From a virus, in IMG/VR virus record IMGVR_UViG_3300006147_000025: a stretch of 50,668 nt of DNA; one strand, given 5' to 3'. Both the position numbers and the translations under genes were made by a program. Of the stretch, positions 1 to 50,668 are shown piece after piece. Each line of letters begins with the position of its first letter. The first letter of the stretch is position 1. The notes under the pieces are model-generated. The model had not been told where the DNA came from and searched no databases. It was given only the letters and a program-made list of their open reading frames with translations.

Positions 1-77
1 ATTTGCGACGAGTTGGCGGGCGACTACCCCAAAACTTTCAAGTTCCTCGGTTGGCACCCGCAATGCCGTTGCGTCGT
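1..77. repeat. 77-bp terminal direct repeat, left copy, identical to 50592-50668
   Basis: Exact identity read from the sequence (atttgcgacgagttggcggg...gcgtcgt). Confidence 0.97.
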
Positions 78-1482
78 AGTGCCTATTATGTCCGACTACG
101 ACGAGTTCAACAAAGAGAGGGCGAACCGATTAAAAGCCATAGTTCGGGGTCAGACCTATAAAAGCCTTCCTTCCCGTCGCACCGTCCGCGACGTACCCGC
201 CGCCTTCCGTTCCCATATTGAAACGATAGCCGACCGCGCTAAGGGGTGGAAGTCGATGCCGTATTACATACGCGACAACTTCAAGAACGGCGTTATTTCC
301 GGCGGCCTTCTTCCGGCTATTCCGCAGAAGACACAAATGCCAGGCACCACGGCAAAGCCGTCCGAACCCTGTACGGAGTTCGACAGCGAGATAGCCCATT
401 ATAAAGCGTGGGCCTATACGTTCGGCTTAGACGTTTCGGGGTTGGATCCATTGAGGACGGCCGGCGACCGCGCCGGACTTCGCGCCGAATTGCAACGCTT
501 ACACACGGAACGCATCAATAGGCTACAACAATGGATGGCCGCCCGTAACGAGGTGGAAGACTTCGCAGACAAGGCGGTAGGCTTCCCGGACATAGTGAAG
601 GAAATAGAAGCCGCCCTTAACGCCAACGACGTAAAGACTAACAACTACTACGGCGACTGCATTAGCCGCCTTAAAGCCTTCTTCGCGTCGCTACCCGCCA
701 AGTTAGCAGCCGCAAAAGCCAAGAAGGGCAGCTATTCCGCGAATATGCCCGCCGAGTTGGAAAAGGGTAAGGCATATTTAGGCGACGCCGACCACGAATT
801 TAGTAAGGACTTCTTCGACCTTCTCAAACGGAAGGTTAAGTTAGAGATACACAACAGCACCGGGCGCAGTTACGAAAGTGGCGGCAACTTAGTCGTAGTC
901 TATACGAAAGGACGTAACGAAGTTTCGCCGTGGCACCGCGTATCCGTTATTTACCATGAGTTCGGCCACGCCATAGCCGACCAACGGAATTTATTGTTTG
1001 CGAAGGAAGTTACAGACCTCCGCGACGCACAGACCAAGCGGCTACGCACCCGCGAAAAGACGACCTATTACACGACGGAAAGGGTATGGAACTATAAAAC
1101 GGGGAAGTACGAGGTTCAGAAGGTCAAGCACGAAGTAAACCAAATGCGTATAATAACGCTGTCGGCTAAGATAAAAAACATTTACGAGCGAATACGGACT
1201 AAGGACAAAGACGACCCGATATTTAAGCGTTACGGCATTTCAAAGCCGGATGCGTTGGAGCAGTTCGGCGGACTTATGGACACGTTGCGAAGTTTGGTAA
1301 ACCGCGACGACGTAGGCTGGGGTCATTCCGTTAGTTACTTCAAGAGTTACGGCATGAAACAACACGAATATTTAGCCCACGCCTTTGAAAATGCATTTAT
1401 AGGAAACCGCGTATTCCAGTTGTTGATGCCAACCGAATACGCGGAAATGGTAGCGTTAGCGAAGTCGTTTAAGACACCCTAA
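1..1482 (+). CDS. Head morphogenesis protein (Mu gpF / SPP1 gp7-like), C-terminal part; continues in frame from 49776-50668 across the junction. Carries a C-terminal HExxH metallopeptidase-like domain.
   Basis: Position 1 equals 50592 and starts a codon in the frame of the ORF opening at ATG 49776. The motif WHPQCRCVVVP spans the junction (the HPxCRC signature of Phage_Mu_F). HEFGH lies at 955-969. The joined protein is about 765 aa. Confidence 0.8.
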   Translation: MCDELAGDYPKTFKFLGWHPQCRCVVVPIMSDYDEFNKERANRLKAIVRGQTYKSLPSRRTVRDVPAAFRSHIETIADRAKGWKSMPYYIRDNFKNGVISGGLLPAIPQKTQMPGTTAKPSEPCTEFDSEIAHYKAWAYTFGLDVSGLDPLRTAGDRAGLRAELQRLHTERINRLQQWMAARNEVEDFADKAVGFPDIVKEIEAALNANDVKTNNYYGDCISRLKAFFASLPAKLAAAKAKKGSYSANMPAELEKGKAYLGDADHEFSKDFFDLLKRKVKLEIHNSTGRSYESGGNLVVVYTKGRNEVSPWHRVSVIYHEFGHAIADQRNLLFAKEVTDLRDAQTKRLRTREKTTYYTTERVWNYKTGKYEVQKVKHEVNQMRIITLSAKIKNIYERIRTKDKDDPIFKRYGISKPDALEQFGGLMDTLRSLVNRDDVGWGHSVSYFKSYGMKQHEYLAHAFENAFIGNRVFQLLMPTEYAEMVALAKSFKTP

Positions 1483-1786: not shown

Positions 1787-2185
1787 TTATTTGGAGTTAA
1801 ACGGAGCATAGCCCGAAGGAATAAAACCTATTCCGAAGGTATTGCTTTCGGGGTGGAAGTCGTAGCCGATACAGGCGGCCCCGGCTAAAACGTCCGGCTT
1901 CCCGTTCAGTTCCTCGGAAGGAAGCGGCGCACCTTCGACGGGTGGGAATAGTTCAGTAACAACCCGGTCAAGTCTACGTAGTGCATCACGCCGGGCGCGT
2001 CCGTGGGAGTTCTTAACGTCGCACAGGGCAATAGTAACGCGCCCTTCATTGGTGGGAGCGTAGCGCGCTACCAAGTCGTCAAGCATAGGCTCGACGGAAC
2101 GGGAAACTTCCGCCATTGCGTCCCGGAGTACCGGGGAATACGGGAACGGTAGCGGTTGGAAGGCGGGGGCTAAGGGCTTAGGCAT
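1787..2185 (-). CDS. Hypothetical protein (132 aa)
   Basis: Start taken at ATG 2185 (MPKPLAP...), overlapping the stop of the upstream ORF by 8 nt. No motif recognised. Confidence 0.5.
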   Translation of the reverse strand: MPKPLAPAFQPLPFPYSPVLRDAMAEVSRSVEPMLDDLVARYAPTNEGRVTIALCDVKNSHGRARRDALRRLDRVVTELFPPVEGAPLPSEELNGKPDVLAGAACIGYDFHPESNTFGIGFIPSGYAPFNSK

Positions 2186-2402
2186 TTTGTTTATATTTGG
2201 CTTCAATTTCAACTCCTTTAATACGACAGTCCACGACGTCGCCGGAATTAGCAAGGGCGGGCTGTACTTCAACGGCAACCGCTATTTTTACGTCCGTGGC
2301 ATACGACCCGGCGAAGTTCTTAACGGCTTCCGTTATGTTGTGTTCAAATTCCGCCTTCTTCATAAAGAACGCTTCGGCGGGGGTTAAGTTCTTTTCTTCC
2401 AT
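2178..2402 (-). CDS. Hypothetical protein (74 aa)
   Basis: Start taken at ATG 2402 (MEEKNL...). It lies 26 nt downstream of a minus-strand TATCTTTG box. Confidence 0.45.
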   Translation of the reverse strand: MEEKNLTPAEAFFMKKAEFEHNITEAVKNFAGSYATDVKIAVAVEVQPALANSGDVVDCRIKGVEIEAKYKQNA

Positions 2403-2428
2403 AGTTGTAATGGGCTTTAATTCAAACG

Positions 2429-2436
2429 CAAAGATA
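2429..2436 (-). promoter_or_regulatory. Candidate Bacteroidota -7 promoter box (TATCTTTG on the minus strand)
   Basis: Plus strand reads caaagata, which matches the TAnnTTTG consensus on the minus strand. It is 26 nt upstream of ATG 2402. Confidence 0.35.
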
Positions 2437-2582
2437 CGACAATAACGCACCCAATCCAAATCAGCCAACCACGACAACCGGGAAGACCATACCCACCAAG
2501 GCACAGCCATAACCGTATAACGTGGAACGGGCGTAACTAATTGTTACCAACCGAAAAAGTCAATAGCAAAAAATACTCAATT

Positions 2583-2600: not shown

Positions 2601-3296
2601 CTACTTCATCGCAAGGACTTTATTAAGCCGCGCCGTAAACTTTTCATCGTCCGGGAATACGTCGAGAGCCACGCGGATAACGCGCAGTTCGTTCTCTTTG
2701 TCCTTCGCCTTCCGATACAGAACACAAAGCCGCCAATAGGCATGAAACGCCGGATAGCGCAGCTTTATACATTCTTCGTAAGTAGCAATAGCCGCCGGAA
2801 CTTCGCCGCGCTTTTCAAGTTCCAAACCTTTGTTATTGAGTTCGGCGGTAGTGTATAAAAGTCGCTCCCGTCGTTCCGCTTCCGCTTTATAGGCTTCGGC
2901 TTCTTCATAGTCCGCGACCGATACGACAATGTTGTTATAACCATTCCAAGAAGCGCGGTTACAGGCTTCCCAATAGTCCTCATATTTAGACCAACCCGCC
3001 AACCCGCACCCCGGAGCAAAGAAGGACACGGGTACAAGTGTTTCACCTTCGCCCGGCATTGTTTCGCAAGAATCGGGGTTAGTTTCGTTGGCTTCCTTCC
3101 GTTCCGACCAAGCCGTCAATTTATCAGCGTCCGGCGTTGGTATTGAGTATTCACGCCCCTGCACACGAATAGAGAGCGAAGCCGGAACGTCGGATGTTTC
3201 GGGGCTATTCGTGCTTCGCTTCGATACACGGGCAATAACGACAATAAGAACACAGGCCACAAGCGCAGCCAACAAGATATAACCCACAACTTCCAT
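2601..3296 (-). CDS. Membrane-anchored protein with a C-terminal TPR-like repeat (231 aa)
   Basis: N-terminal hydrophobic helix (ILLAALVACVLIVVIARV). The C-terminal helical repeat (AIATYEECIKLRYPAFHAYWRLCVLYRKAKD) resembles TPR. Confidence 0.6.
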   Translation of the reverse strand: MEVVGYILLAALVACVLIVVIARVSKRSTNSPETSDVPASLSIRVQGREYSIPTPDADKLTAWSERKEANETNPDSCETMPGEGETLVPVSFFAPGCGLAGWSKYEDYWEACNRASWNGYNNIVVSVADYEEAEAYKAEAERRERLLYTTAELNNKGLELEKRGEVPAAIATYEECIKLRYPAFHAYWRLCVLYRKAKDKENELRVIRVALDVFPDDEKFTARLNKVLAMK

Positions 3297-8890: not shown

Positions 8891-8904
8891 CAATTATTAA
8901 GACC

Positions 8905-13942: not shown

Positions 13943-13954
13943 CACAACAGCAAA

Positions 13955-14464: not shown

Positions 14465-14465
14465 C

Positions 14466-19955: not shown

Positions 19956-20216
19956 ATGGTAAACAGGAACGGCGACCAAGTAAGCGTGCAAGTTTCGGTA
20001 ATTGGCCCGGTCAACTTCGACGGCGGCAGCTTCCGAAAAGATACCCCCTTTTGCGTCAAGAACGACGGAGAAGCGGCGGTAGTGCTTGAAGTAAACCTTT
20101 GGGGAATGCCCGAAGGCGAATTTATTGCCACACGCTTTGAAACAGGGTGGAACCCCGAAATAGTCCGCGAGATAAAATCAACAAGTCAAAAAACCGCCCT
20201 TCTTTGGGGCTATTAA
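19956..20216 (+). CDS. Hypothetical protein (86 aa), first gene of the DGR unit
   Basis: ATG ORF between the candidate promoter and the target gene. Confidence 0.5.
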   Translation: MVNRNGDQVSVQVSVIGPVNFDGGSFRKDTPFCVKNDGEAAVVLEVNLWGMPEGEFIATRFETGWNPEIVREIKSTSQKTALLWGY

Positions 20217-20230
20217 AACAACATACGAAC

Positions 20231-21562
20231 ATGGGTTTAATCATAGCAGCGGGCAACACTAAGCCCGCCTTCCCTTACGATTATTACTACGGCGTGAAAA
20301 TCAAGACGACCGTAGCCGCTACCACGTTGGAAAGAGTGGGCCGCCCGGAACTTCACGTTTCCCTGCCTATTCAGTCCAAAATGCGCCGCTGTGTGCTTCG
20401 TGACAACGGAACGGTAGCCTATTACCTTCACGCCACCGACAGCACCAAGCGCGACAACGGAGCCGCCGCCAACCTTACCGGGGCGGACGGTCAAGTAATG
20501 GTAGAAATTCCGCGCCACTACCGAAAATTTGAGTTCGACGGCACGGACTTAGTAGCCCTTATTTCCGAGTACCCCCTGCCGGGCTTCCACGAAGTCCCCA
20601 AGATGTACCGCAGTGCTTACGAAGCCACCGTAGACCGCACCGTTACGGCTACGCCTAAATTGGCTTCCGTCGTCAACGCTACCGCCGCTTTCCGTGGTGG
20701 AAACAATAACACCGCGTGGGATGGAACATACCGCAGCCTTCTCGGACTTCCGGCTACACAAATTTCCCTTACCAACTTCCGCAACTACGCCCGCAACCGT
20801 GGCGAAGCCGGACTTAACGGCAAAGGGTGGAACTGCGACTTATACGCCGCGCAGCTTACAACCTATTGGCTGTTCGTCATTGAATACGCCAACCTTAACT
20901 GCCAAGCGGCATTTAACCCGCAGCCCGACGCAAACGGTTACAAACAGGGCGGACTCGGCGCAGGCGTAACAACGCTTAATAGTACGAAGTGGAACACATT
21001 TAACGGCTACTACCCGTTCGTCCCGTGTGGCTACACCAACAGCCTCGGCAACGCTACGGGCGTGGTAGAGTTCACAATGCCCACCGAATACGACGCTACC
21101 CCCTTAGTCGTACAGGTTCCAAGTTACCGAGGGTTAGAAAACCCCTTTGGGCATATTTGGAGCTGGACGGACGGCTGCAAGTGTGAGATACAGAGCGACG
21201 CGGACGGCGGGCTGTCAAAGTTCTACGTTTGCAACGACCCGGCGCAGTTCCAAGACAGCAGCTATAACGGCTACGACTACCGGGGCGACCTTCCCCGCAA
21301 GGAAGGTTACGTTAAGGCCATACTTGCCGGAGAGTTCGGCGAGAATATGCCGCGAGAGGTTGGCGGCGGTTCTACGACCTACTTCTCGGACTACTTCTAT
21401 ACCAATATACCCGCTTCCGGCGTGGCTATGAGGGGCGTTTTGTTCGGCGGTGGTGCGTCCGGCGGCGCGTATGCCGGGCTTGCGTTCGCGCATACGGCCG
21501 GCGCGGCTACGGCTACGGATGCGCTCCTCGGCTCCCGGCTTTGCTTTATACCCGCCGCGTAG
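20231..21562 (+). CDS. DGR target protein 1 (443 aa), probable receptor-binding protein with a C-terminal variable ligand-binding fold
   Basis: Start taken at ATG 20231. The last 39 codons are VR1, ending ...GSRLCFIPAA. It lies directly after the tail fibre gene. Confidence 0.85.
   Translation: MGLIIAAGNTKPAFPYDYYYGVKIKTTVAATTLERVGRPELHVSLPIQSKMRRCVLRDNGTVAYYLHATDSTKRDNGAAANLTGADGQVMVEIPRHYRKFEFDGTDLVALISEYPLPGFHEVPKMYRSAYEATVDRTVTATPKLASVVNATAAFRGGNNNTAWDGTYRSLLGLPATQISLTNFRNYARNRGEAGLNGKGWNCDLYAAQLTTYWLFVIEYANLNCQAAFNPQPDANGYKQGGLGAGVTTLNSTKWNTFNGYYPFVPCGYTNSLGNATGVVEFTMPTEYDATPLVVQVPSYRGLENPFGHIWSWTDGCKCEIQSDADGGLSKFYVCNDPAQFQDSSYNGYDYRGDLPRKEGYVKAILAGEFGENMPREVGGGSTTYFSDYFYTNIPASGVAMRGVLFGGGASGGAYAGLAFAHTAGAATATDALLGSRLCFIPAA
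21433..21545 (+). repeat. DGR variable region VR1
   Basis: 113 nt aligned without gaps to the TR at 22035-22147. There are 23 mismatches, all at TR adenines (23 of 29 A positions), and no other mismatch. Confidence 0.95.
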
Positions 21563-21602
21563 CACGTCCACGCCCCACGACCTACAAAAACACAATAACC
21601 CG

Positions 21603-21639
21603 CCCCAACCGCCGCGTACCGTTTATTCGGCGGTTGGGG
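21603..21639. other. 12-bp perfect GC-rich hairpin (ccccaaccgccg-N13-cggcggttgggg) 57 nt downstream of VR1
   Basis: Read directly from the sequence. Could be a terminator, a DGR target-recognition structure, or both. Confidence 0.5.
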
Positions 21640-21657
21640 TCAATAAAAAACAAAAAT

Positions 21658-22011
21658 ATGGATACCCAAACGAACCCCGGACACGACGACGGAACCCTCG
21701 CCTTCCTGAATATTCCACAGGACGAGAATAACAAGCACTTCAACTGCCACGAAACCACGCAGCAGAAGTTAATTAACCTTTCCTTCTTCGTGCTTGACTT
21801 CATCGACGGAGTTAAGACCAAGTTCGGGGCGGAACGCTTCTTAGTGAAGATAAAGCACCCGGACAACAGCCCCGACAAGGCGGGGCAAGTGGAAAAGTTC
21901 TTTACCAATTCCACCGAAATAAAGTATGTGCTTCGTGAGATTAAGAAGCGTAACGCCTTCCCGCGAAAAGTCACTATGAGGGCTTCGGGAACGCGCTACT
22001 ACTTTGAATAA
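21658..22011 (+). CDS. Putative DGR accessory protein in the Avd position but not Avd-like (117 aa)
   Basis: Start taken at ATG 21658 (MDTQTNPG...). It lies between the target gene and the TR. The sequence looks beta-rich and basic at the C terminus, not a four-helix bundle. Confidence 0.5.
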   Translation: MDTQTNPGHDDGTLAFLNIPQDENNKHFNCHETTQQKLINLSFFVLDFIDGVKTKFGAERFLVKIKHPDNSPDKAGQVEKFFTNSTEIKYVLREIKKRNAFPRKVTMRASGTRYYFE

Positions 22012-22034
22012 AACGAATTGGGTTGTTTGCCTTC

Positions 22035-22147: not shown

Positions 22148-22238
22148 GATACACTTAGCCCCATAGGGTTAAGACACGATACTAAAAAGGCAAAGACCCC
22201 GCCCGCAAAGGCGAAAAATAGTAATTATTTAACGGCTT

Positions 22239-23321
22239 TTGGTAGGCTACACGCCGAAGAACGCCATAGAATCAGCAAAGCAAAAAGAAGTGAAACGACG
22301 CGGAAACATATACGGCGAATTTAGCAGCGTGGAGAATATAACCCACGCTATAATTACGTCGCCAAGCCGCAACAAGAAGAAACCCCGGCGACTTGCAAAG
22401 ACCGTCGAGGAACAGGCGAAGGAAATACACGCCCTTCTCGTTAGCGATAGTTTCCGCCCGTCGCCTTCTTATACCGTTAAAATTCACGACCCCAAAGAAC
22501 GCCTTCTTACCATACTTCCCGAAACGCCCGACAAGATAGTACACCGCGCCCTGTTAAACGTGCTTCGCCCCATTTGGGACAAAGTATTTATTTCCGCTTG
22601 TTATTGCGGAGTGAAGCGGCGCGGGCAACTTCCGGCAGCTAAAAAGGTTTTGGACTTCTTACAGGAAGCCCGGCAGAGCGGCCCGGTATATTGTCTTAAA
22701 TTCGACATAAGGAAGTATTACCCTTCCATAAACCACGAAGTAATGAAGGGAATAGTACGCCGAAGCATTAAGGACAAACGGATCCTTAAAATTTTGGACG
22801 ACATTATAGACAGCGAACCCGGCATTATGCTCGGTAGCCCGCTTAGTCCATACTTCGCCAACCTTTATATTACGCCGTTGTGCCATTGGCTCAAGGAGAA
22901 GAAGGGCGTTAAATACCTTATTGACTACGCCGACGACTTTGTTATACTTTCCAACGATAAAGAGGAATTGCACCGTTTACTCGCCGAGATTGAGGACTAC
23001 ACGACCAACAAATTAAAAATAGAGGTCAAGAGGAATAAGCAAATTTTCCCGGTAGCCTTAGACCGAAGCGACAAACACGGCCGGGGCATTGACTTTTTAG
23101 GCTTCGTCTTTAACCTTAACGAAACACGGATAAGGAAGGGTATTAAGCGAAACCTTTGCCGGAAGTTGGCGAAGTTACGGAAAGCCAAACACCCCGTACC
23201 CGAAAAGGAGTTTTTACAGGCTCTTGCGTCGTGGTGGGGTTGGCTTAAATACAGCGATAGCGACTATTTTATTAACAAACTAAACAAGAAAAGCCCGTAT
23301 GAAATCAAATTCAGACGTTAG
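22239..23321 (+). CDS. DGR reverse transcriptase (360 aa)
   Basis: N terminus RRGNIYGEFSSVENI. Also KFDIRKYYPSINH, LGSPLSPYFANLY, the YADD box (IDYADDFVIL) and IDFLGF. TTG start, with no in-frame ATG near it. Confidence 0.9.
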   Translation: MVGYTPKNAIESAKQKEVKRRGNIYGEFSSVENITHAIITSPSRNKKKPRRLAKTVEEQAKEIHALLVSDSFRPSPSYTVKIHDPKERLLTILPETPDKIVHRALLNVLRPIWDKVFISACYCGVKRRGQLPAAKKVLDFLQEARQSGPVYCLKFDIRKYYPSINHEVMKGIVRRSIKDKRILKILDDIIDSEPGIMLGSPLSPYFANLYITPLCHWLKEKKGVKYLIDYADDFVILSNDKEELHRLLAEIEDYTTNKLKIEVKRNKQIFPVALDRSDKHGRGIDFLGFVFNLNETRIRKGIKRNLCRKLAKLRKAKHPVPEKEFLQALASWWGWLKYSDSDYFINKLNKKSPYEIKFRR

Positions 23322-23721: not shown

Positions 23722-23736
23722 CCAACCTATACAACG

Positions 23737-24342: not shown

Positions 24343-24358
24343 CCAATATTAACACAGC

Positions 24359-25614: not shown

Positions 25615-25845
25615 AAAAGTACCCTTAAAAGTCCGTTTTCGGGTACTTTTTCGGGTACTTATTTGCTACTTTGCTGTATTACAGCGTTGTTGGCGGAGAG
25701 GACGAGTCTACGAGGTTTATTTAATATTATTTCCAACCATAGCCAAACATTAACGGTTACAGCGTTTAACGTGGTAACGCTTGTTTCATTGGGTAGGTGC
25801 ATAATCAAACATTAAACGTAAAACCGGGTACTTTTTCGGGTACTT
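25615..25845. repeat. attP-like region with repeated GGGTACTT(T) motifs
   Basis: Identical 21-mers CGGGTACTTTTTCGGGTACTT at 25640-25660 and 25825-25845, plus an inverted copy aaaagtaccc at 25615-25624. The region abuts the integrase 3' end. Confidence 0.5.
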
Positions 25846-27182
25846 CATTTTTTGCCTTCTTCGGATTTGGTACGATTGACATCGAAGGAATTAAATCGTT
25901 CCATATTTTCAGCCTTCAAAGCGTCTACTATTTTTATATACGGCTTCATTGCCTTATAGTCAGCGTGGCCCGTCCATTGCATAATAACAGGCGCGGGAAT
26001 ACCGAGCCGGAAGGCGTTAACAATAAAAGTACGTCGCCCGGCGTGGGTAGTTAATACTTCGTGCTTCGGTACAACCGCTTCCGTCCGTTGAGAACCGCAA
26101 AAAGAAACTATTCGCACAGGCGCATCAAGTCCGGCGGCTTCCGCCGCTTCGTGAAGGTTGCTGTTCATTCGTTGATTACTTAACACAGGCATAGCGGCAT
26201 CGTCCGGCAAAGGTATATTAACGTATTTGTCAAGGATAGCAAGCGCGTACTTATTTAATTCTATGTGTAGTCGTTTGGAAGTTTTTTTAGTTACCACGCT
26301 AATATAAGGTGGCACGGCTTCGCGGTAAACGTCCGATTTACGCAGTTTCGCAGCGTCGGAGTACCGAAGCCCAGTAAAGCAGCAGAAGCAGAAGGCATCG
26401 CGGACTATTTCGAAGGAGTTGTTAAAGCCGGAGAAGTCAAAATTTAGAAAGTGGTGCAATTCTTCCCATTCCAAATAAATAACTTCTTTGCAGTCCAATC
26501 CCTTAAAGCGTGGGCGATATTGAACATGGGCCAGCCCGGAATAATAGCCATTAGCAGCAGCCCAACGCAAGAACCAACGCACGAAAGCGACATTTTTAGC
26601 GACCGTGGTATTTAACTGCCCTTCCTTTGTCTGCAAGTGGGTAACAAACCCGGCGAAAGTATTTTTATCGAAGCCTTCCAACGTCAGCCGTCTATTATAC
26701 TTTTTAAGGTGGGCTTTTAGGCTTTTGAATTTGGTATAGGTTGCATGGGTCCAATTATTCGTAACCCCCATTTCCCCGGTAAATAGGTCATAGACGGCGA
26801 AGAACCCTAACGGCTTTTCTTCCGGCTTCTTTTCTTCGGGCTTCGCACGTCCGGCGGCCAAGTCGAAGGCTTCCTTAAATTCGGCGACCGAAGGCGGGCG
26901 TTTATTGTCAAGTTCAAACCGGGTAAGGACTTCTTCAATAGTGGAAGCCACAGCCATAACGCCGCGATTGATAGCCCCGGCTGTTTCGCCGTGGCTGTTC
27001 TTGTTTCCGAGCCGGACGCAACTATTAGCGTCGTCCCATTTTGCCGGGGCGATAACATAGCCGGAGCGGATATCGCACCGAAGACCGGCCCACGATACCC
27101 GAAGCCTAATACCGACTTCTTCCGTAGCCTTACCCTTATTGTTAGGCTTTATATGTAACCCTACCTTAATTTTGAACTTCAT
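25845..27182 (-). CDS. int: Tyrosine recombinase / integrase, Bacteroides phage-CTn type (445 aa)
   Basis: N-terminal arm-binding-like segment (VGIRLRVSWAGLRCDIRSGY). Catalytic HAGRRTF and GHADYKAMKPY motifs near the C terminus. Confidence 0.9.
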   Translation of the reverse strand: MKFKIKVGLHIKPNNKGKATEEVGIRLRVSWAGLRCDIRSGYVIAPAKWDDANSCVRLGNKNSHGETAGAINRGVMAVASTIEEVLTRFELDNKRPPSVAEFKEAFDLAAGRAKPEEKKPEEKPLGFFAVYDLFTGEMGVTNNWTHATYTKFKSLKAHLKKYNRRLTLEGFDKNTFAGFVTHLQTKEGQLNTTVAKNVAFVRWFLRWAAANGYYSGLAHVQYRPRFKGLDCKEVIYLEWEELHHFLNFDFSGFNNSFEIVRDAFCFCCFTGLRYSDAAKLRKSDVYREAVPPYISVVTKKTSKRLHIELNKYALAILDKYVNIPLPDDAAMPVLSNQRMNSNLHEAAEAAGLDAPVRIVSFCGSQRTEAVVPKHEVLTTHAGRRTFIVNAFRLGIPAPVIMQWTGHADYKAMKPYIKIVDALKAENMERFNSFDVNRTKSEEGKK

Positions 27183-27647: not shown

Positions 27648-27872
27648 ATAGCTGAGTTATTTTTCCCGAATTTTGCGTTTACGGCACTTTACGCCCCAAA
27701 TGGTAGGAATTACCACCCCGAAGAAAACGGCGCGAAAATGGGGCGTTTCTGTGCGTTCTACGGCGTATCACTTTACTACGGCACTTATGCCGCTACTTAC
27801 CTGTATTTCTCGGCTTTATATATAATAAGGTATAGCCAAAATTTCAGTATAAAGGAACGGTACGCCCAAGGA

Positions 27873-28280
27873 CTACCCGACAGCGGCAGAGGTTGCAGTG
27901 TCGCCCCGGTGGACATCCGCTTTTTTAGTAAGTTCGGTTAGCCGTTCGATAGTCCGCTGTTGACTTTCGATTATAGAGAGAAGGCGGGCTTTTTCTTCGC
28001 GGGCATCTTCCAAAAGTTTAAGAAGAATTTCGGAAGGTGCCGCTTCGGGGGCTTCCGGCTTTTCTTCGGGTAGGAGCATTTCGCCCTCGCCCATCATTAG
28101 CCACAGCGGATTAAGGCGCGGGAATTGTATGGTAATTTGTTGTAGAGTGTCCGGCATTATAGACTTACGAATACTTTGTATATAGGCAGACCCCACGCCG
28201 ACGCGCCTACAAAATTCGCGTTCGCTGATACCTACAAACTTTATAAAGTCTTTAAGTCGCTCTTTTACTGTTCCTTCCAT
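27873..28280 (-). CDS. CI-like repressor: XRE-type HTH with a C-terminal coiled coil (135 aa)
   Basis: ERLKDFIKFVGISEREFCRRVGVGSAYIQSIR ... NPLWLMMGEGEML. Divergent from the early operon. Confidence 0.7.
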   Translation of the reverse strand: MEGTVKERLKDFIKFVGISEREFCRRVGVGSAYIQSIRKSIMPDTLQQITIQFPRLNPLWLMMGEGEMLLPEEKPEAPEAAPSEILLKLLEDAREEKARLLSIIESQQRTIERLTELTKKADVHRGDTATSAAVG

Positions 28281-28326
28281 TGCATTGAAGGGATTAAATG
28301 TTAAACAATCTTAAAAACACGTCCTT

Positions 28327-28401
28327 TGTATGGCAAACACTTGCATCGTGTATGGCAAAGCATTAACTTTGCACCGTGTTAGTAATTCAGTTGCAAAGTT
28401 A
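28327..28401. promoter_or_regulatory. Lysogeny switch region: tandem TGTATGGCAAA repeats and two face-to-face TAACTTTGCA boxes
   Basis: Repeats at 28327-28337 and 28349-28359 (22-bp period). TAACTTTGCA at 28364-28373 (+) and its exact inverse TGCAAAGTTA at 28392-28401. Confidence 0.5.
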
Positions 28402-28452
28402 GCGAAAATTACAGCACGAAGCAATAACAAAAATTACTTAAATTTCAGTTAT

Positions 28453-28677
28453 ATGGACTACACGACAGCGCAGATTAACAGAAACTTCCTAATTAAAGTT
28501 AGCGGAGTGAACGGCGAAGGGAAGCGGTTAAATACCCTCGTCGGAGTAAGCGGGCTTCTTCGTCTTATTGGCGAAAAATTAGCCAACAACCTACTAACCC
28601 GCGCCTTTAAGTGTATGCTTGATAAGTGCGTATGCAAACTTCGTCGCGGGCTTAAAATTACATTCTACTACAAATAA
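28453..28677 (+). CDS. First early-operon protein (Cro position, 74 aa)
   Basis: ATG 28453 preferred to ATG 28330, because the stretch between them contains the promoter boxes and is AT-rich and leader-like. The start remains uncertain. Confidence 0.4.
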   Translation: MDYTTAQINRNFLIKVSGVNGEGKRLNTLVGVSGLLRLIGEKLANNLLTRAFKCMLDKCVCKLRRGLKITFYYK

Positions 28678-28689: not shown

Positions 28690-28917
28690 ATGGCAAATAA
28701 AACTATTAAGGCTAAGGCAGTCGTAAAAGTGCTTACCGACTTCGGCTATTGGTGCCTGGCAGAGATACGCGGACTTAAAGAAGGCACAATATTAGAAGGC
28801 CGGTTTAACCCCAAAAACAAAGCCTTTGATTTTTCCTACAACGGGCAAGACGCAATGCTGTGGATAGGACAAAACGGCGAACTAATAGAAGACGAAACAA
28901 CTAACACCATACAATAA
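28690..28917 (+). CDS. Hypothetical protein (75 aa)
   Basis: ATG ORF in the early operon. Confidence 0.5.
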   Translation: MANKTIKAKAVVKVLTDFGYWCLAEIRGLKEGTILEGRFNPKNKAFDFSYNGQDAMLWIGQNGELIEDETTNTIQ

Positions 28918-29141
28918 TGAGCATGAACGACAACCGGGGCTGTAGTGTTTGCCCCGCCGGAAGCGAGAACTACGAAGTATTCACTACCCGCCTACGCGGA
29001 AAGCGAGTTAAGCGCGTCCAATACGACTACCGCACCCCGGACGGGGAACTATTCGCTACCGTGGCTTCGTCCTTGATTGAGTGCCGCCACCGCCGCGATG
29101 AGTGGTTAGAGAAGCGACAGGCAAACGCGGGTAAGGGTTAA
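28917..29141 (+). CDS. Small Cys-containing protein (74 aa), resembling small conserved proteins of Bacteroides mobile elements
   Basis: CSVCPAG...VQYDYRTPDGELFATVASSLIECRHRRDEWL. The family assignment is from memory only (possibly DUF3873-like). Confidence 0.4.
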   Translation: MSMNDNRGCSVCPAGSENYEVFTTRLRGKRVKRVQYDYRTPDGELFATVASSLIECRHRRDEWLEKRQANAGKG

Positions 29142-29339
29142 TTTTCTTGATAGCCGTATCAAGTTAATACGGAGCAACCACAACTATATAACAAGCCAAC
29201 GGAGAAAGAATCCCTTTCGTGAAGGCTATAAACCGTTGACAACCGGGAACAGGCCGGAGCGCGGACGCGGCGAAAGCGGGCGTAGGAAGTTCGAGCCTTC
29301 CTCCGCGCACTAAATTCTAACCGCTTAATAATTCAAAAT

Positions 29340-29582
29340 ATGACATTGACAGCGACAAAAGCAGCCTTCCGAGGCTTCCGAAACGGACTTAAACAAGTAA
29401 AGATGGGCGACTACGAAGCCTGTATAGCCGACCTTTGGGCGGCATTGGGAATCAATAACCGCAATTCCTTCTATTGCTACCGCGACGGCAAGCAGGAACC
29501 AAAGGCAAGCCAAGCCGTAGCAGTTACGGAAGTATTCGCCAAGTATGGAGTAACCGAAAATATTTGGGGGATATGCGACTAA
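29340..29582 (+). CDS. Hypothetical protein (80 aa)
   Basis: ATG ORF after a 198-nt structured intergenic region. Confidence 0.5.
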   Translation: MTLTATKAAFRGFRNGLKQVKMGDYEACIADLWAALGINNRNSFYCYRDGKQEPKASQAVAVTEVFAKYGVTENIWGICD

Positions 29583-29980
29583 AAGCAGAGCTTACCCGAC
29601 GGGAAGGCGAGGTAGCCGAGTTGTTGGCGTGGGGAGCGAGTAAGAAAGAAGTAGCCGAAAGGCTCTTTATTTCAGCCCGAACCGTAGAGAACACCGCCCG
29701 CAACATATACGCCAAGATAGGCATCCAAAAGGCTACGGAACTTTGCGTTTGGTGGTTTTGCACGAAGTGCGGCGTTCCCGTGGATTTAGACCCGCTTAAA
29801 CGCGCCTTCATAGCGACAGCCCTGCTGTTGGTTATGGGCTTCCACGAATACAACGGCAATAACGACGACAACTATTTGTTACGCGGGACCAGACCGACAA
29901 CGGCACGGACAGCAAGAACGCTCCGCCGGGCAAAGGACGAGAACGAAAATATTACCCCCTTCAACAACCTGATAGCATGA
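29573..29980 (+). CDS. LuxR/GerE-type HTH regulator with a C-terminal hydrophobic segment (135 aa)
   Basis: LTRREGEVAELLAWGASKKEVAERLFISARTVENTARNIYAKIG, followed by AFIATALLLVMGF. Start taken at ATG 29573. Confidence 0.65.
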   Translation: MRLKAELTRREGEVAELLAWGASKKEVAERLFISARTVENTARNIYAKIGIQKATELCVWWFCTKCGVPVDLDPLKRAFIATALLLVMGFHEYNGNNDDNYLLRGTRPTTARTARTLRRAKDENENITPFNNLIA

Positions 29981-30228
29981 CAAGCGAGGAACTGAAAACA
30001 AAGATATTCGGCAAGACCGAAACCGGGGAACGCTACACGTTCCGGCAGTGGCTAATTTTCGTATGGTTCGCCCTGTCGCTATTCCTTCTTTGCGCGGCCG
30101 CCGACGACGCAAGTATAACTGTCTTATTGGTTCTATTCGCCAACTTCGCCGCTTCCGCCCATTACATTAACAAACTTCCGCTTCCCGAAGACCCTGAAAA
30201 ATACTTAGACGACGATGAAGAAGATTAA
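29977..30228 (+). CDS. Small membrane protein with two TM helices (83 aa)
   Basis: WLIFVWFALSLFLLCAAA and VLLVLFANFAASAHYI. ATGA overlap with the upstream gene. Confidence 0.55.
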   Translation: MTSEELKTKIFGKTETGERYTFRQWLIFVWFALSLFLLCAAADDASITVLLVLFANFAASAHYINKLPLPEDPEKYLDDDEED

Positions 30229-30508
30229 CCCCGACACCCGAATAATAGACCTTACCGTAGGCCAACTTTTGGATACAGTCGAAGACCGAGTAAGAGCGGT
30301 TTTGGCAAACAAGCCAACAAAACAGGAAGGCGAACGCCGCTACGTCTACGGCCTTAAAGGTTTGGCGAAACTATTAGGGTGCAGCAAAACGACCGCAAGC
30401 CGTATCAAGACTTCCGGGAAGATTGACAAAGCAATAACCCAAATAGGCGCACTTCTGATTATTGACGCGGATTTAGCCTTAGAGTTAGCCGGAAACAAAG
30501 AAAAGTAA
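30215..30508 (+). CDS. HTH DNA-binding protein, excisionase/MerR-like (97 aa)
   Basis: YVYGLKGLAKLLGCSKTTASRIKTSGKIDKAI. Confidence 0.5.
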   Translation: MKKINPDTRIIDLTVGQLLDTVEDRVRAVLANKPTKQEGERRYVYGLKGLAKLLGCSKTTASRIKTSGKIDKAITQIGALLIIDADLALELAGNKEK

Positions 30509-34738: not shown

Positions 34739-35308
34739 ATGAAGAAAATAGCACTTTTCCGAAAGTACGGCGAATCCGCCGAGTTCGTAGCCCGCTTCGA
34801 CAGCGTAGAAGAAGCAAGCGACCAAGTGAAGGACATCATCAACGAAGACGAAGACGCTAACGTATTCGACTTCTACACCGAGGAACAGGAGTACACCGAC
34901 ATCCGCGAACGCGTGAAGACATACGCCGACGCTTGCGAAGTCTTAGGCATAGCCGAAATGGACGAAAAGGCTTTTAAGGCCTGCGGCTTCCGTCCCGACG
35001 AGATAGCTCGCCGTAAGTTGGAAACCATAACCGAAGCCCTTAACGAAGGTTGGCGGCCGGATTGGAACAATACCAACGAATACAAGTATTTCCCCTGGTT
35101 CCGTATTCTTCCCGGCAAGGGTAAGGACGCAGAGGGTAAACCCGACGGCGCGTCTGCCGGGCTTGCGGACGCGCATACGAACCGCGCGGCTCCGTCTACG
35201 AATGCGTACTTCGGCTCCCGGCTTTGCTTCCACGACAGCGACATCGCCGCCTACGCGGGCGACACGTTCCGCGACCTTTACGCCCAAATCTTAGTAGAAA
35301 AATTCTAA
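34739..35308 (+). CDS. DGR target protein 2 (189 aa), remote small target in the early/replication module
   Basis: Contains VR2 in the same codon phase as VR1 (...GKPDGASAGLADAHTNRAAPSTNAYFGSRLCF...). Confidence 0.85.
   Translation: MKKIALFRKYGESAEFVARFDSVEEASDQVKDIINEDEDANVFDFYTEEQEYTDIRERVKTYADACEVLGIAEMDEKAFKACGFRPDEIARRKLETITEALNEGWRPDWNNTNEYKYFPWFRILPGKGKDAEGKPDGASAGLADAHTNRAAPSTNAYFGSRLCFHDSDIAAYAGDTFRDLYAQILVEKF
35141..35228 (+). repeat. DGR variable region VR2
   Basis: 88 nt aligned without gaps to TR 22060-22147. There are 17 mismatches, all at TR adenines (17 of 27), and no other mismatch. Confidence 0.93.
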
Positions 35309-36537: not shown

Positions 36538-37488
36538 ATGAGCCAAGACAGCATAGTAATTTTTCGTTCATACATAGACGCAATAGCCGAGCTTCCGGTG
36601 GAACTTTATAAGGAAGTTTCGCGGGTGCTTTACGCTTATGCCTTCGATGGCATAGAGCCGGACGACACCGCAAGCCCAACGGCCCGCGCCCTTTTTATAG
36701 CGTTGAAGTCGCAGATAGATTTTAACGTAGCGAGGTATGAACGAGCGGTTAGGAACGGTAGTAAAGGCGGCGCACCCAAAGGCACAAGAAACAACCCCAA
36801 CGGAAGGCGTGGAAAAAGAACTAACCAAGAACTAACCGAAACTAACCAAGAACTAACCAACGCCGAAAAATTAGTTATTTCGGACGTTGAAGGGGGTATA
36901 GAAACGGTTGAAGCGGTTGAAGTCGTGGCTTCCGATGAAGGGCAAAAACAGCCCAAACGGGCAAAAAAGGCTAAAAAAGGGTTAGATATAACTAACCAAG
37001 AACTAACCCAAAACAAACCCGAAACTAACCAAGACGAAGAAAAAGAACTAACCGAACCAAAAGAACTAACCTTAATCAGTAATCAGTTATCAATAAATAA
37101 TAATTCTGTTGTTGTAGATAACGCGCGTGAGGTTAGTTTTTTTGAAAAGTTCTTTGCACCCGAAAACCAATATTCGTTAGAAGTGCTTTGTATGCAGGAG
37201 CACACCGACCTCGTAACAATAAAGCAGTACGCCCACGAAATTTTAGCAGAGTGGCAGCTGCGCGAGGTTAGCCATACCGACTACCAAGAAGCCTCCCGGC
37301 ACTTAATTAACCATCTTCGCCGAAAATTTGAAGCCGCCCGCCGCGCCAAGCGTGAAGAAGATGCCGCGCCCAAAAGCAGACAGCAGGCCCGCGAAGACTT
37401 GATAAGGGGAGCCGTCGAAAGATTGACAAACGCAATCGGTAAGGACGGGGCCAGCCCCGCCACCGCCGGAGATACACAACCCTTCTAA
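36538..37488 (+). CDS. Putative replication initiator / replisome organiser with embedded iterons (316 aa)
   Basis: The central region encodes repeated TNQELT peptides from the DNA iterons. Arrangement resembles lambda O with ori inside the gene. Confidence 0.5.
   Translation: MSQDSIVIFRSYIDAIAELPVELYKEVSRVLYAYAFDGIEPDDTASPTARALFIALKSQIDFNVARYERAVRNGSKGGAPKGTRNNPNGRRGKRTNQELTETNQELTNAEKLVISDVEGGIETVEAVEVVASDEGQKQPKRAKKAKKGLDITNQELTQNKPETNQDEEKELTEPKELTLISNQLSINNNSVVVDNAREVSFFEKFFAPENQYSLEVLCMQEHTDLVTIKQYAHEILAEWQLREVSHTDYQEASRHLINHLRRKFEAARRAKREEDAAPKSRQQAREDLIRGAVERLTNAIGKDGASPATAGDTQPF
36818..37138. repeat. Iteron array and AT-rich tract: candidate origin of replication
   Basis: Nine direct AACTAACC copies start at 36819, 36830, 36840, 36851, 36990, 37001, 37023, 37046 and 37064. 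An AT-rich stretch lies at 37072-37118. An inverted copy GGTTAGTT lies at 37131-37138. Confidence 0.6.
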
Positions 37489-37505: not shown

Positions 37506-38285
37506 ATGGAACTATTACCTTCAAACCGTCGCCCTGATACGTCCGGGGCATTGACCAAGGCCGACCCGAAGGCGTTGGCGATAAGACAGCAGTACGGCGA
37601 CCTACCGCAGCTTTGCAAAACCTTTGGAGTTCCCGCCCAAAGGTACTGCGCACAAAACATAGAGAAAGCCATCCGTTCCGGGGTGCCAACCTTCGCGCTT
37701 GTAGTTCGCACCTACGGCGACGACGGAGTAGCCGGACTTATTGGCACACACATAACCGACGCAATTCTACGCATGGGAGAAGACAGGGACGTAGACGAAT
37801 ACGACGTAGACTTTATAGCCCACGCCATTTGTGAAAGTGAACGCTTCTGGCTATTGTCGATGGCTTCTATACTTCGCTTCTTCCACTTGTTGAAGTGTGG
37901 CGAATTTGACATCTACGGCAAGGTAACGCCACGCAAGATTTTAGAAGCCTTCCGCAAGTACGCGATAGAGCAACAGGCAAAGGAAAACCGAATAGCCTAC
38001 GAAATTGAGAAGGAGAAGAAACAGCAAGAGGAAGAAGAACACGCCCGGCGTATAGCCATAGAGGGTAACGGGTGGGAAAACTTCAAGAAGCAAAACGGGT
38101 TAAACCTCAATTTAACGATAGTTGAGTATTTCGCCCAAAAGCAGAAAGAAGCCATAGCAGCCCGGAAAGCCGCCGAGGAAGCCAAGAAGCCCCCAATCGT
38201 CCGATTTTTGGAAACGTGGCAGGAAGTTGTAAAAGTCTTATCCTTCGTAAAAGAATACATAGAAATCAAGAGTAGAAACAAATAA
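37506..38285 (+). CDS. Hypothetical replication-module protein (259 aa)
   Basis: ATG ORF following the initiator-like gene, with a charged C-terminal coil. Confidence 0.5.
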   Translation: MELLPSNRRPDTSGALTKADPKALAIRQQYGDLPQLCKTFGVPAQRYCAQNIEKAIRSGVPTFALVVRTYGDDGVAGLIGTHITDAILRMGEDRDVDEYDVDFIAHAICESERFWLLSMASILRFFHLLKCGEFDIYGKVTPRKILEAFRKYAIEQQAKENRIAYEIEKEKKQQEEEEHARRIAIEGNGWENFKKQNGLNLNLTIVEYFAQKQKEAIAARKAAEEAKKPPIVRFLETWQEVVKVLSFVKEYIEIKSRNK

Positions 38286-38396
38286 CGCCATCAGAGCCAC
38301 GGAAACGCCCCAATTTTCGCGCTACGCCCTTCGGGTGGGTAGTTGAAGGGCTGACGACAATAAAACGCCATAGAAGCAAAATAAACCCCAAATCGC

Positions 38397-39005
38397 ATGA
38401 AGCAAACTAAAATTTACATAAGCGGCCAAATTTCGGGATTAACCCCGGAAGAATACACCGCGAATTTTACCGCAGCCGCCACGCGCCTAACGGCACAGGG
38501 CTACGCCGTGATTAACCCCCTTAACAACGGCGTGGATCCGTCCGAACCGTGGATAGAGCAAATGAAAGCGGATATTCGCTTATTGCTTGACTGCGACGCG
38601 ATTTATATGCTTGCGAATTGGGAGTTAAGCAACGGGGCGACATTAGAACGGGAGATAGCCAAAGGTTTAGGTTTAACGGTGGAATACGAACGTAGACCGT
38701 TGCACCGGGATATTAAACGCGCCATACTTGTAGCGATGGCTGTTCCCTTCAAGTACATAGTAAACGACAGCCGGGGGCGTTGGTGCGTCTACGCCCGAAT
38801 GATATACGCCCACCATTGCAAAAAGCGCGGAGTTTCGACACAGGACATCGCCGAAGAAACGAAACACGACACTTCGACAATTCACTACTACCTCCGTCGA
38901 TACGATAATGAATACAAGTATAACCGAGAGTTCCGCGCCGCCGCCGAAAAAGTGGCTACACTATTGAGCAATAAATTAACTACGCCTTCGGACGTATCAA
39001 TATAA
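38397..39005 (+). CDS. DUF4406 / nucleoside 2-deoxyribosyltransferase-like domain fused to a DnaA domain-IV-like HTH (202 aa)
   Basis: N terminus KIYISGQISGL...CDAIYMLANWELSNGATLE. C terminus VYARMIYAHHCKKRGVSTQDIAEETKHDTSTIHYY. Confidence 0.55.
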   Translation: MKQTKIYISGQISGLTPEEYTANFTAAATRLTAQGYAVINPLNNGVDPSEPWIEQMKADIRLLLDCDAIYMLANWELSNGATLEREIAKGLGLTVEYERRPLHRDIKRAILVAMAVPFKYIVNDSRGRWCVYARMIYAHHCKKRGVSTQDIAEETKHDTSTIHYYLRRYDNEYKYNREFRAAAEKVATLLSNKLTTPSDVSI

Positions 39006-39011
39006 GACGAA

Positions 39012-43320: not shown

Positions 43321-43385
43321 GAAGTTTTAGCGAAGTGTTTTAGGGTTTGTCGTATCAATTTAATACGGCAAACCCTTTAACTTTG
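43321..43385 (+). promoter_or_regulatory. Candidate late-type promoter: 20-bp upstream element, 13-bp hairpin containing the 17-bp palindrome, and TAACTTTGCG
   Basis: GAAGTTTTAGCGAAGTGTTT at 43321-43340. The hairpin gggtttgtcgtat-N7-atacggcaaaccc follows at 43343-43375, with a single G-T pair. TAACTTTG at 43378-43385. Confidence 0.5.
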
Positions 43386-49609: not shown

Positions 49610-49775
49610 TCCCAAGTAACCGCCCAAAATTCCGTAATACGCTCTATTTATGGAGAATACGAACCAAAAGAAGCCATTTTGAGCCGCGTGTAAGCCGCGT
49701 TTCCTTCCGAATGGATAAAGTACCCACCTCGGAAGCGGAACGCGCTTAAACGCGAAATTCCGAAAAAATAACTTT

Positions 49776-50668
49776 ATGCCCGATTATACCGAAAACCGCC
49801 TTATAGTCCGACTTCGTGGCTTCGATGCCCGGCACTACGCCAAGACGCGGCAGTACGCCCGCCAAGTGGAACGGCTCTATAACACCGCTTGCGACGAGAT
49901 AGCCCGCGCCGCCGGACGTATAACCATACCCGAAGACGGCGTTTTTAGTTTCGACGACTTCCCGGCTACACGTCGCCAAGCCGAAGGCATACTTTCCCGA
50001 CTTACGAAGAAGGTAGAAGCCGTTATAACCACCGGGACGCGGACGGAGTGGCAAGCGGCCTGCGACAAAAGCGATGCCTTCTTAGGTTCCATACTTCGCA
50101 CGTCCCGGCTAACCCCGGAAGAAGCGGAGAAGTACCAAGCCCGGAACCTCGAAGCCTTACAAGCCTTCCAACAGCGTAAAGCCGGAGGTTTGGGGCTTAG
50201 TCAGCGCGTATGGAAGTACACGGAAGAATTTAAGACGGCGTTAGAATTGGGTATAGACGTAGCCGTAGGCGAAGGGCGCAGCGCACAGCAGCTCTCCCGC
50301 GACCTTCGCCAATACCTACAACAGCCGGACAAACTATTTAGGCGCGTCCGTGACAAGGGCGGAAACCTTCGGCTTAGTAAGGCGGCTAAGATGTACCACC
50401 CCGGCCAAGGCGTTTACAGGAGTGCAGCCAAGAACGCCGAGCGTTTGGCGCGGACGGAAGTAAATATGGCGTACAGGGAAGCCGAATACTTACGATGGCA
50501 ACAATTAGATTTTGTCGTAGGCTTCCGCGTGATGTTGAGCAACAACCACACCACGAAGGACAGCAAGGGGAAGACCGTACCGCTAACCGACATTTGCGAC
50601 GAGTTGGCGGGCGACTACCCCAAAACTTTCAAGTTCCTCGGTTGGCACCCGCAATGCCGTTGCGTCGT
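49776..50668 (+). CDS. Head morphogenesis protein (Mu gpF / SPP1 gp7-like), N-terminal part; continues at position 78 of the window (1-77 duplicate 50592-50668)
   Basis: ATG at 49776 with no stop before the window end. ...AERLARTEVNMAYREAEY...LGWHPQCRCVV matches the Phage_Mu_F signature. Confidence 0.8.
   Translation, partial: MPDYTENRLIVRLRGFDARHYAKTRQYARQVERLYNTACDEIARAAGRITIPEDGVFSFDDFPATRRQAEGILSRLTKKVEAVITTGTRTEWQAACDKSDAFLGSILRTSRLTPEEAEKYQARNLEALQAFQQRKAGGLGLSQRVWKYTEEFKTALELGIDVAVGEGRSAQQLSRDLRQYLQQPDKLFRRVRDKGGNLRLSKAAKMYHPGQGVYRSAAKNAERLARTEVNMAYREAEYLRWQQLDFVVGFRVMLSNNHTTKDSKGKTVPLTDICDELAGDYPKTFKFLGWHPQCRCV
50592..50668. repeat. 77-bp terminal direct repeat, right copy
   Basis: Identical to 1-77. 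Confidence 0.97.

Follow-up and report, generated by a model that had tools for sequence, protein, structure and literature searches.

The locus considered here raises the question of what a short palindrome, repeated between the genes of a temperate phage, is for. The DNA is IMG/VR virus record IMGVR_UViG_3300006147_000025, a stretch of 50,668 nucleotides (nt) that we refer to as the window, and the element is the 17-base-pair (bp) palindrome CGTAT-N7-ATACG, one copy of which (CGTATCAATTTAATACG, 43351-43367) lies ahead of the packaging genes. The initial annotation had offered two explanations, the operator of a dimeric phage regulator placed at operon boundaries or a family of terminator or anti-terminator hairpins. 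Comparison of sequences leads us to think it rather probable that the palindrome is the operator of a phage regulator and forms the core of late promoters that have no -33 element, with extra copies at the borders of modules.

Definition of the motif and its copies

Exact CGTAT-N7-ATACG occurs at 2583, 19900, 29155 and 43351, as had been claimed, against 0.06 sites in shuffled sequence, and none of 100 shuffles reached four. The copy at 19900 is the exact reverse complement of that at 43351, and the copy at 29155 is one base off the latter. The degenerate copies at 4150 (13/17) and 27764 (15/17) were found as described, and the suspicion that a scan by eye had missed some was well founded, as the site at 38993-39009 (CGTATCAATATAAGACG) had been overlooked. 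Six of these seven copies are wholly non-coding and the seventh, at 38993, is at a gene junction, in good agreement with the view that the motif is confined to the spaces between genes, and this in a genome of which only 7% is non-coding.

A refined consensus, derived from 31 distinct exact cores of relatives, is the 7-3-7 dyad CGTATYA-N3-TRATACG with 14 specified positions. The first five positions do not vary, the sixth is a pyrimidine without exception and the seventh is A in 87%, with no constraint on the central 3 nt. The window has seven sites with at most one mismatch to this consensus (0.04 expected), and allowing two mismatches adds none. Other one-mismatch matches, at 39299 and 44514, are in coding sequence, do not fit the inner consensus and look like chance matches.

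The dyad as part of probable late promoters

Each late operon is headed by a copy of the dyad. Copy A, the exact match at 43351-43367, is in the promoter of the packaging operon, which runs from 43408 through the genes for ParB-methylase, terminase and portal. Copy B (CGTATTAAATTGATACG, 19900-19916) is in the promoter of the operon for the diversity-generating retroelement (DGR), tail fibres and lysis, which starts at 19956, and copy C (TGTATTAAGGTAATACG, 4150-4166) in that of the head-tail operon, which starts at 4211. The copies are given without strand, and the promoters all read along the plus strand. Their -7 boxes are TAACTTTG at 43378-43385, 10 nt after the palindrome (promoter A), TAAATTTG at 19926-19933, 9 nt after it (promoter B), and TAACTTTG at 4168-4175, 1 nt after it (promoter C). 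The first two of these TAnnTTTG boxes had been noted before, and the third is added here.

The register is fixed. Among 159 non-redundant sites of the family 52 have TAnnTTTG downstream, and it is at two gaps only, 0-2 nt at 19 sites and 8-10 nt at the other 33, where by chance a box would be expected within 10 nt after about 0.3% of sites. The shorter gap belongs to the head operon and the longer to the packaging and DGR/tail-fibre operons.

TTTG and TAnnTTTG at -33 and -7 are the consensus for Bacteroides sigma-ABfr (PMC10620806). The dyad promoters keep the -7 element and lack the other: a TTG at a spacer of 18-21 nt is present in one of the 52, and absent from promoter A, while of the P_R-type early promoters 28 of 31 non-redundant examples have TTG at exactly 20 nt. 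This argues that the dyad promoters are built for dependence on an upstream factor, and by their sequence they do appear to depend on something upstream.

A second element, also kept in relatives, is shared by the late promoters: a pair of direct repeats, GAAGTTTTnGC GAAGTGTTT, spaced 11 bp apart and both containing AAGT. At promoter A it reads GAAGTTTT..GC GAAGTGTTT (43321-43340, plus strand) and at promoter C GAAGTTTCGGCGAAGTGTTT (4111-4130, plus strand). At promoter B the GAAGTGTTT repeat is inverted, upstream of the palindrome (19876-19884, minus strand), and the same inversion is found at the orthologous promoter in related locus L115 and in phage005b of Porphyromonas gingivalis. GAAGTGTTT occurs exactly three times in the window, once per late promoter. 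The repeat element is a constant 46 nt from the -7 box at promoters A and C, though the dyad is shifted by 9 nt between the two.

The solitary copies

The remaining four copies, at 2583, 29155, 27764 and 38993, have no GAAGT repeats and no -7 box, except that the first has an imperfect box. Copy D (2583-2599) lies between the minus-strand open reading frames (ORFs) 2601..3296 and 2178..2510, 1 nt after the stop of the former, with the imperfect box TATTTTTTG 7 nt beyond it on the minus strand. Copy E (29155-29171) is 13 nt past the stop of ORF 28917..29141, and ahead of both a conserved structured RNA and the operon of 29340 and the LuxR-type gene 29573. Copy F (27764-27780, one mismatch) separates the 3' end of the cI-like gene from the operon of 27647, 27480 and integrase. 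Copy G (38993-39009, one mismatch) runs over the stop of ORF 38397..39005, and 2 nt separate it from the ATG (39012) of a C5-methylase gene. There is also a decayed half-site, TAATACG, at 49635-49641 after the portal gene, where relatives have a full copy. The statement that the palindrome directly follows a stop codon thus suits 2583 and 29155, and 38993 as well, but not 43351, for which it had also been made and where the gap is 40 nt.

The structured RNA between copy E and ORF 29340 is about 120 nt long (approximately 29185-29310, plus strand). At its 5' end there is a hairpin domain, and two hairpins are enclosed by a stem (GCGCGG/CCGCGC) like the acceptor stem of a tRNA. There are compensatory changes at seven base pairs among 10 relatives, and a conserved TATATAAG precedes it. 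The RNA is absent from some relatives (L077, L087-L089), and it has neither an Rfam nor a tRNA match. A further element of about 60 nt, GAAACGCCCCATTTTCGCGC...CTTCGGGGTGG, is common to 27708-27766, downstream of copy F, and 38285-38344, upstream of ORF 38397.

Conservation in related phages

About 220 IMG/VR loci (given L numbers here) were collected as relatives by homology to the LuxR-type gene, to TerL or to the first head gene, with 26 more from GTDB genomes. In 849 kilobases (kb) of related loci there are 66 exact matches to CGTAT-N7-ATACG where about one is expected; about 20 of the 66 are an in-coding look-alike and are discounted.

The positions of the copies are kept in relatives. The same relative places recur where TerL is 63-90% and the LuxR-type protein 59-67% identical. 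With respect to the LuxR-type gene they are at about -420 or -280 (equivalent to 29155, which is kept 260-430 nt upstream of that gene), about -1600 to -2500 (27764) and about +9400 (38993). With respect to TerL they are at about -3300 (copy A), about +2985 (after the portal gene) and about +6480 (2583). Copy G is kept at its junction even where the downstream gene is different, and the orthologues of copy C adjoin the -7 box in all close relatives. We had considered whether the dyad stands beside a -7 box in all head-gene relatives; this holds down to about 35-40% protein identity and is not significant beyond that.

The motif described so far, which we call C-type, is found in prophages of Paramuribaculum, Muribaculaceae, Phocaeicola, Bacteroides, Barnesiella and Prevotellaceae. 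A sister lineage (integrase 43-45%, TerL 63-64% and head gene 35-40% identical) has TGTWTYA-N3-TRAWACA, the T-type, at these three promoters, with 2-6 nt between it and the -7 box and with direct repeats of ATAAGT type upstream; there is no C-type copy in 493 kb of this lineage. The motif type tracks phage lineage and not host, since the C-type is constant over at least four host families and the T-type is present in phages of both Porphyromonas and human-gut Bacteroidales, and we would argue from this that the reader of the motif is phage-encoded.

The genome of phage005b, which is complete and annotated, contains three T-type copies and no more (0.09 expected), at 15241 before the ParB/terminase operon, at 30534 before the head operon and at 44871 before the tail-fibre/lysis operon. 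In each case a -7 box follows after 3-6 nt and ATAAGT direct repeats lie upstream, and there is no copy at the gene junctions of this genome. It is the cleanest evidence for a late-promoter role, and suggests that this role is the ancestral one.

One apparent covariation was set aside. The half-site 42-53 nt upstream of the LuxR-type gene seemed to vary (CGTAT or CATAT) with the recognition helix, but it is a coding artefact that encodes V/I-F-x-K-Y-G. The look-alike CGTATTCAACAAATACG, about 42 nt upstream of the LuxR-type gene in many relatives (L063-L108), corresponds to the C-terminal residues VFNKYG of the gp29340 homologue and resembles the motif on account of its GTA/TAC and TTC/AAA codons; the equivalent in the window (29520-29545) is GTATTCGCCAAGTATGG.

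Searches further afield gave mostly unrelated sequences. About half of the 53 loci from a first IMG/VR scan with a 16-position pattern were unrelated, and a scan for TGTATTA-N3-TAATACA gave 120 loci, most without homology to the window, with five relatives, none of which covers the early region. Around distant LuxR-type homologues (43-57% identical; L307, L312-L321) there is no recurrent dyad within 10 kb. Some non-homologous loci have tight clusters of dyads, CGTATCA-N3-TGATACG in L049 (430-477) and L051 (13415-13477), six TGTATTA-N3-TAATACA within 3 kb in L355, and another cluster in L382, and these look like independent operator arrays of other phages.

Candidates for the binding protein

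The initial annotation named the cI-like (27873-28280) and Cro-like (28453-28677) proteins among the candidate regulators. Both are unlikely, because the cI-cro control region (28281-28452) has no copy of the palindrome and because its own repeats and cI diverge while the dyad does not. The region has instead the direct repeat GTATGGCAAA twice, at 28328 and 28350, and P_R, with TTG at 28341-28343, a 20-nt spacer and TAACTTTG at 28364-28371 on the plus strand. Among relatives cI is 30-80% identical and the P_R operators differ (TGTATGGCA, TGTATGC, ACACTGCA), with the dyad invariant. A leftward TAACTTTG (28401-28394, minus strand) faces the P_R box 22 nt away; this face-to-face layout is kept in relatives and the repeats are lineage-specific. 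Another Cro-like protein, gp29340, the product of the first gene after P_R in the T-type lineage, is also an unlikely binder, as its putative recognition helix varies widely in that lineage despite a constant dyad.

The LuxR-type protein gp29573 (29573-29980, plus strand, 135 amino acids (aa)), which had also been named, is still a candidate. It has a GerE-type helix-turn-helix (HTH; Pfam GerE, 1.5e-13), its PDB profile matches are VpsT, LiaR, GerE, VraR, DosR and NarL, and an AlphaFold2 (AF2) model has the four-helix domain. The gene is 400 nt downstream of copy E and is the most conserved early regulator, with a recognition helix that is invariant in the C-type lineage. The protein co-occurs with the dyad in the C-type and most of the T-type lineage. 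Residue 41 is T in C-type phages and H in T-type phages, and the helix reads ENTARN with CGTATYA and ENHAR[NSRT] with TGTWTYA, although this is one split only and is confounded by phylogeny. As a universal binder it has to be rejected: phage005b has no homologue, and L442, L447 and L467 lack the gene yet keep the late-promoter dyad.

The protein has no sensor domain. The HTH is followed by an invariant ELCVWWFCxKCGVP, a 21-residue hydrophobic helix (74-94) and a disordered Arg-rich tail, and it may be membrane-anchored. In L442 the place of the gene is taken by a 197-aa protein and a 62-aa hydrophobic ORF (7341-8122, minus strand), and in phage005b by a 53-aa hydrophobic ORF (L483 2766-2927). 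L443 has an in-frame stop within the recognition helix.

The second candidate is the DUF3853 protein gp30215 (30215-30508, plus strand; Pfam DUF3853, 4e-24), with a predicted HTH and a weak match to HTH_17. It is present in every lineage examined, and its putative recognition stretch is invariant within a lineage and differs between lineages (GCSKTTASRIK and NCSMTTANRIK), and it could read the dyad or the direct repeats. An AF2 model of mediocre quality (predicted local distance difference test, pLDDT, 68) gave no significant PDB match with Foldseek and has only a generic HTH.

Among the approximately 60 proteins scanned there is no match to the Lpa, Mor/C, RinA or ArpU families, and Pfam and PHROGs searches of the remaining small early proteins gave no known late regulator family. 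We would give the LuxR-type protein, the DUF3853 protein and some other phage protein about equal and rather modest chances of being the binder in this phage, and a host factor only a slight one.

The proposed mechanism and the alternatives

On the reading that we prefer, CGTATYA-N3-TRATACG would be recognised by a phage-encoded, probably dimeric, HTH regulator, and the composite late promoter at 43351, 4150 and 19900 would comprise the two AAGT direct repeats, the 17-bp dyad and the TAnnTTTG box. The regulator would come from the early operon and, bound at the dyad, would most likely supply the missing upstream contact and recruit host sigma-A RNA polymerase. Recruitment at the three promoters would then turn on the late genes, for particle building and lysis. 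At 43351 the dyad would top the terminator hairpin of the early operon, so that early read-through would end exactly at the late promoter. The four solitary copies probably serve autoregulation by the same or a second protein, or a block to transcription or insulation at module borders. The operator suggested in the initial annotation stands in kind, the arms being conserved as sequence, the motif type linked to lineage and the positions kept; for three copies the place is within a late promoter.

Several observations weigh against this reading. For four of the seven copies there is no -7 box close by, and the copy at 38993 and the equivalents of 29155 in L088 and L089 are 2-3 nt before an ATG, where an activator is implausible. 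The centre of the dyad, at about -21 or -30, is nearer the start site than classical class II activator sites, a position that is typical of repressor operators too, and the two registers are 8-9 bp apart, short of a complete turn of the helix. It may instead be the AAGT repeats further upstream that an activator uses. Lastly the phages named above lack the LuxR-type protein, which would be the most obvious binder.

A more elaborate version we hold only tentatively. In this the AAGT repeats, lineage-specific dyad and -7 box without -33 would be a new late-promoter grammar, common to many temperate siphoviruses of Bacteroidales (Muribaculaceae, Bacteroides, Prevotella and Barnesiella of the gut, Porphyromonas of the mouth). 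It would be read by phage factors that possibly include the DUF3853 protein, and lineages that gained the small LuxR-type protein with its membrane-like C-terminal helix would re-use the dyad at junctions as a second layer of control. There are hints in the sequences of such re-use by the LuxR-type protein, for autoregulation, as a roadblock, or for insulation of the immunity region by 27764 and 29155. Junction copies are conserved in the C-type lineage, at least one is present in T-type phages with the gene, and none is present in phage005b, but the correlation is thin and confounded by gene content.

A multi-site repressor operator, of the L5 stoperator, P1 C1 or phiC31 type, is unlikely but is the most serious rival. 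A repressor in the lysogen would occlude the late promoters and block polymerase at the junctions, with activation through the AAGT repeats. This would suit copies scattered in short intergenic spaces, some without room for a promoter (38993, and 29155 equivalents 3 nt before an ATG), and the co-directional junction sites at 29155, 38993 and 2583, to which can be added the T-type phage L449, which has the LuxR-type gene and a junction copy 4 nt past a stop and 8 nt before an ATG. Further, 27764 and 29155 flank the immunity region in the manner of insulators, the dyad occupies part of the late-promoter core (-12 to -38), the separate conserved upstream element is available as an activator site, and stoperators are a documented precedent (PMC9283540). 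However, the cI-cro control region has its own repeats and no copy, and the motif does not change with immunity type, being invariant while those repeats and the cI-like protein diverge. Late promoters without -33 would be weak by themselves and need no repressor, phage005b has copies at its three late promoters only, and the site is symmetric with no orientation bias, unlike L5 stoperators.

It is improbable that the dyad is the site of a host transcription factor, that is a conserved Bacteroidales regulator that would tie late phage genes to host physiology. In its favour the best phage-encoded candidate, the LuxR-type protein, is not universal. However one motif type per host clade would then be expected, and C-type and T-type segregate instead with phage lineage across the hosts listed above.

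The last alternative is that the copies are a hairpin family acting as terminators, nut-like anti-terminator sites or RNase processing sites at gene borders. Several copies are close behind stop codons, and the copy at 43351 is within a stable hairpin. This extended hairpin, GGGTTTGT...GCAAACCC (43343-43375, plus strand), folds as RNA at -20 kcal/mol. TT and the -7 box follow the hairpin, and the sequence directly after the hairpin, UUUAACUUUG, is U-rich. Its outer arms covary in relatives (GGCTTTGT/ATAAAGCC, GGGTTAAA/TTTAACCC, GCGTTTAA/TTAAACGC, GGGGCTTC/GAAAGCCCC) while its core stays CGTAT...ATACG, and it is probably, by its sequence, the intrinsic terminator of the early operon, with the palindrome topping its stem. 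A stable stem, a U-tract and compensatory pairing come together at this hairpin only.

The cores of the other six copies fold as RNA at 0 to -3.4 kcal/mol and have no U-tract. Arm changes at 218 non-redundant family sites divide into 64 perfect sites, 103 with single changes, 44 with double uncompensated changes and 7 with compensated pairs, that is 147 uncompensated against 7 compensated, and most of the seven are the T-type variant. The central 3 nt, which would be the loop, vary and the stem is invariant, the reverse of boxB-like RNA-protein sites. Neither Rfam, with gathering or E-value thresholds, nor ARAGORN gave a match at the copies or close to them. With an invariant stem sequence, a free centre and uncompensated changes, the motif is most likely the site of a dimeric DNA-binding protein and not a structured RNA, and a hairpin family is a very improbable explanation.

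Comparison with known systems

The late promoters of P1, as described by Lehnherr et al. in 1991-92, reportedly have a -10-type element, no -35 and a short inverted repeat just upstream, at about -22. The late operons of P1 all depend on one activator, Lpa, made earlier by the phage (PMC8198154). Here too several late operons are each headed by a dyad promoter, and promoter C, with the dyad centred at about -21 and abutting the -7 box, has the same geometry. The differences are the Bacteroidetes sigma-A polymerase with its -7 TAnnTTTG, a 17-bp dyad in two registers, the second upstream repeat element and the extra non-promoter copies, and there is no Lpa homologue among the proteins scanned.

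The activator sites of Mu C/Mor and T4 MotA stand in for the -35 of sigma-70-type promoters. The box of MotA is an asymmetric element, centred at -30, that requires AsiA as co-factor, and Mu C sites are at about -43. Promoters A and B resemble the MotA box in having the dyad centred at -30, but the dyad is symmetric and is nearer the start than Mu C sites, and no homologous proteins were detected.

The LuxR/GerE/NarL boxes (lux box, tra box, GerE sites and the 7-2-7 site of NarL) are 16-20-bp dyads bound by dimeric four-helix HTH proteins; they often overlap -35, and activate or repress. The 7-3-7 dyad is of this kind and such a domain is encoded 400 nt from copy E, but to our knowledge the half-site CGTATYA fits no described box of this family. 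Also the phage protein differs in having no receiver or autoinducer domain and a hydrophobic C-terminal helix, and the dyad is kept in relatives without the gene.

The C1 operators of P1 and the conserved inverted repeats of phiC31 are each one motif dispersed at promoters and between genes. The L5 stoperators are likewise one short motif at many intergenic places in a temperate phage genome (PMC9283540). The motif discussed here shares that distribution. Those sites, however, are the immunity repressor's own operators and are also present at the early lytic promoter, whereas the immunity region here has no copy, and L5 stoperators are asymmetric and orientation-dependent where the dyad is symmetric. 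By analogy, then, the dyad is best explained as working like the inverted repeat of the P1 late promoters or like a lux-type box that overlaps the upstream promoter element.

The phage and its other modules

Bases 1-77 and 50592-50668 of the window are identical, so the genome is complete and closes into a circle of 50,591 bp, with 51% G+C. Matches to DUF3873 and DUF3853, and the TAnnTTTG boxes, assign the phage to Bacteroidales, and it is a temperate, siphovirus-type phage of Paramuribaculum/Muribaculaceae. The closest genome match comes from a cultured strain, Paramuribaculum intestinale DSM 100749, on a contig in which the LuxR-type protein is 98% identical and copy E is also present. The nearest annotated phage is phage005b, with capsid 60% and TerL 42% identical.

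The integrase (25845-27182) and the cI-like gene (27873-28280) are on the minus strand, and the rightward early operon starts on the plus strand at about 28364; the genome also has replication and methylase genes. Of the packaging genes ParB-methylase is at 44744, terminase at 46639 and portal at 48122. A head morphogenesis ORF starts near 49777, spans the circle junction and continues as 13..1482. Then come a small cluster on the minus strand (1787-3766), the head and tail genes (4211 to 19789) and the DGR, tail-fibre and endolysin block (19956-25548).

Within the DGR (19956-23321) the target is a tail protein (20147..21562) with a variable repeat (VR) at 21433-21545, and the template repeat (TR, 22035-22147) lies between an accessory ORF (21541..22011) and the reverse transcriptase (22239..23321). 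Another VR-like copy (35116-35228) is inside early ORF 34739..35308, 13 kb from the DGR, and both VRs deviate from the TR at TR adenines only. Iteron-like repeats AACTAACCAAGAACTAACC, several copies in two clusters at 36819-37041 inside ORF 36538..37488, may be a replication origin within an initiator gene. A 27-nt element like TAACGCGAAATTCCGAAAAAATAACT (89% match) is present at 27655-27681 and 49747-49773, immediately 5' of the starts at 27647 (minus strand) and 49777 (plus strand).

Implications

In the literature that we searched, the timing of gene expression in temperate Bacteroidales phages is not described and the motif is not mentioned. Phage005 of P. gingivalis ATCC 49417 is active in culture, phage005b is released as nuclease-protected particles, and the host is genetically tractable (PMC10367356). 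With the same promoter architecture present in this culture-active phage, gene regulation in temperate phages of Bacteroidales can be tested directly. If the proposal is correct, a simple sequence rule would locate late promoters and show how operons are arranged in the thousands of gut and oral prophage genomes that come from uncultured sources, and there would be a short list of small early proteins as candidates for the late-gene switch. It would also provide a phage-inducible, host-orthogonal pair of promoter and regulator for Bacteroides synthetic biology.

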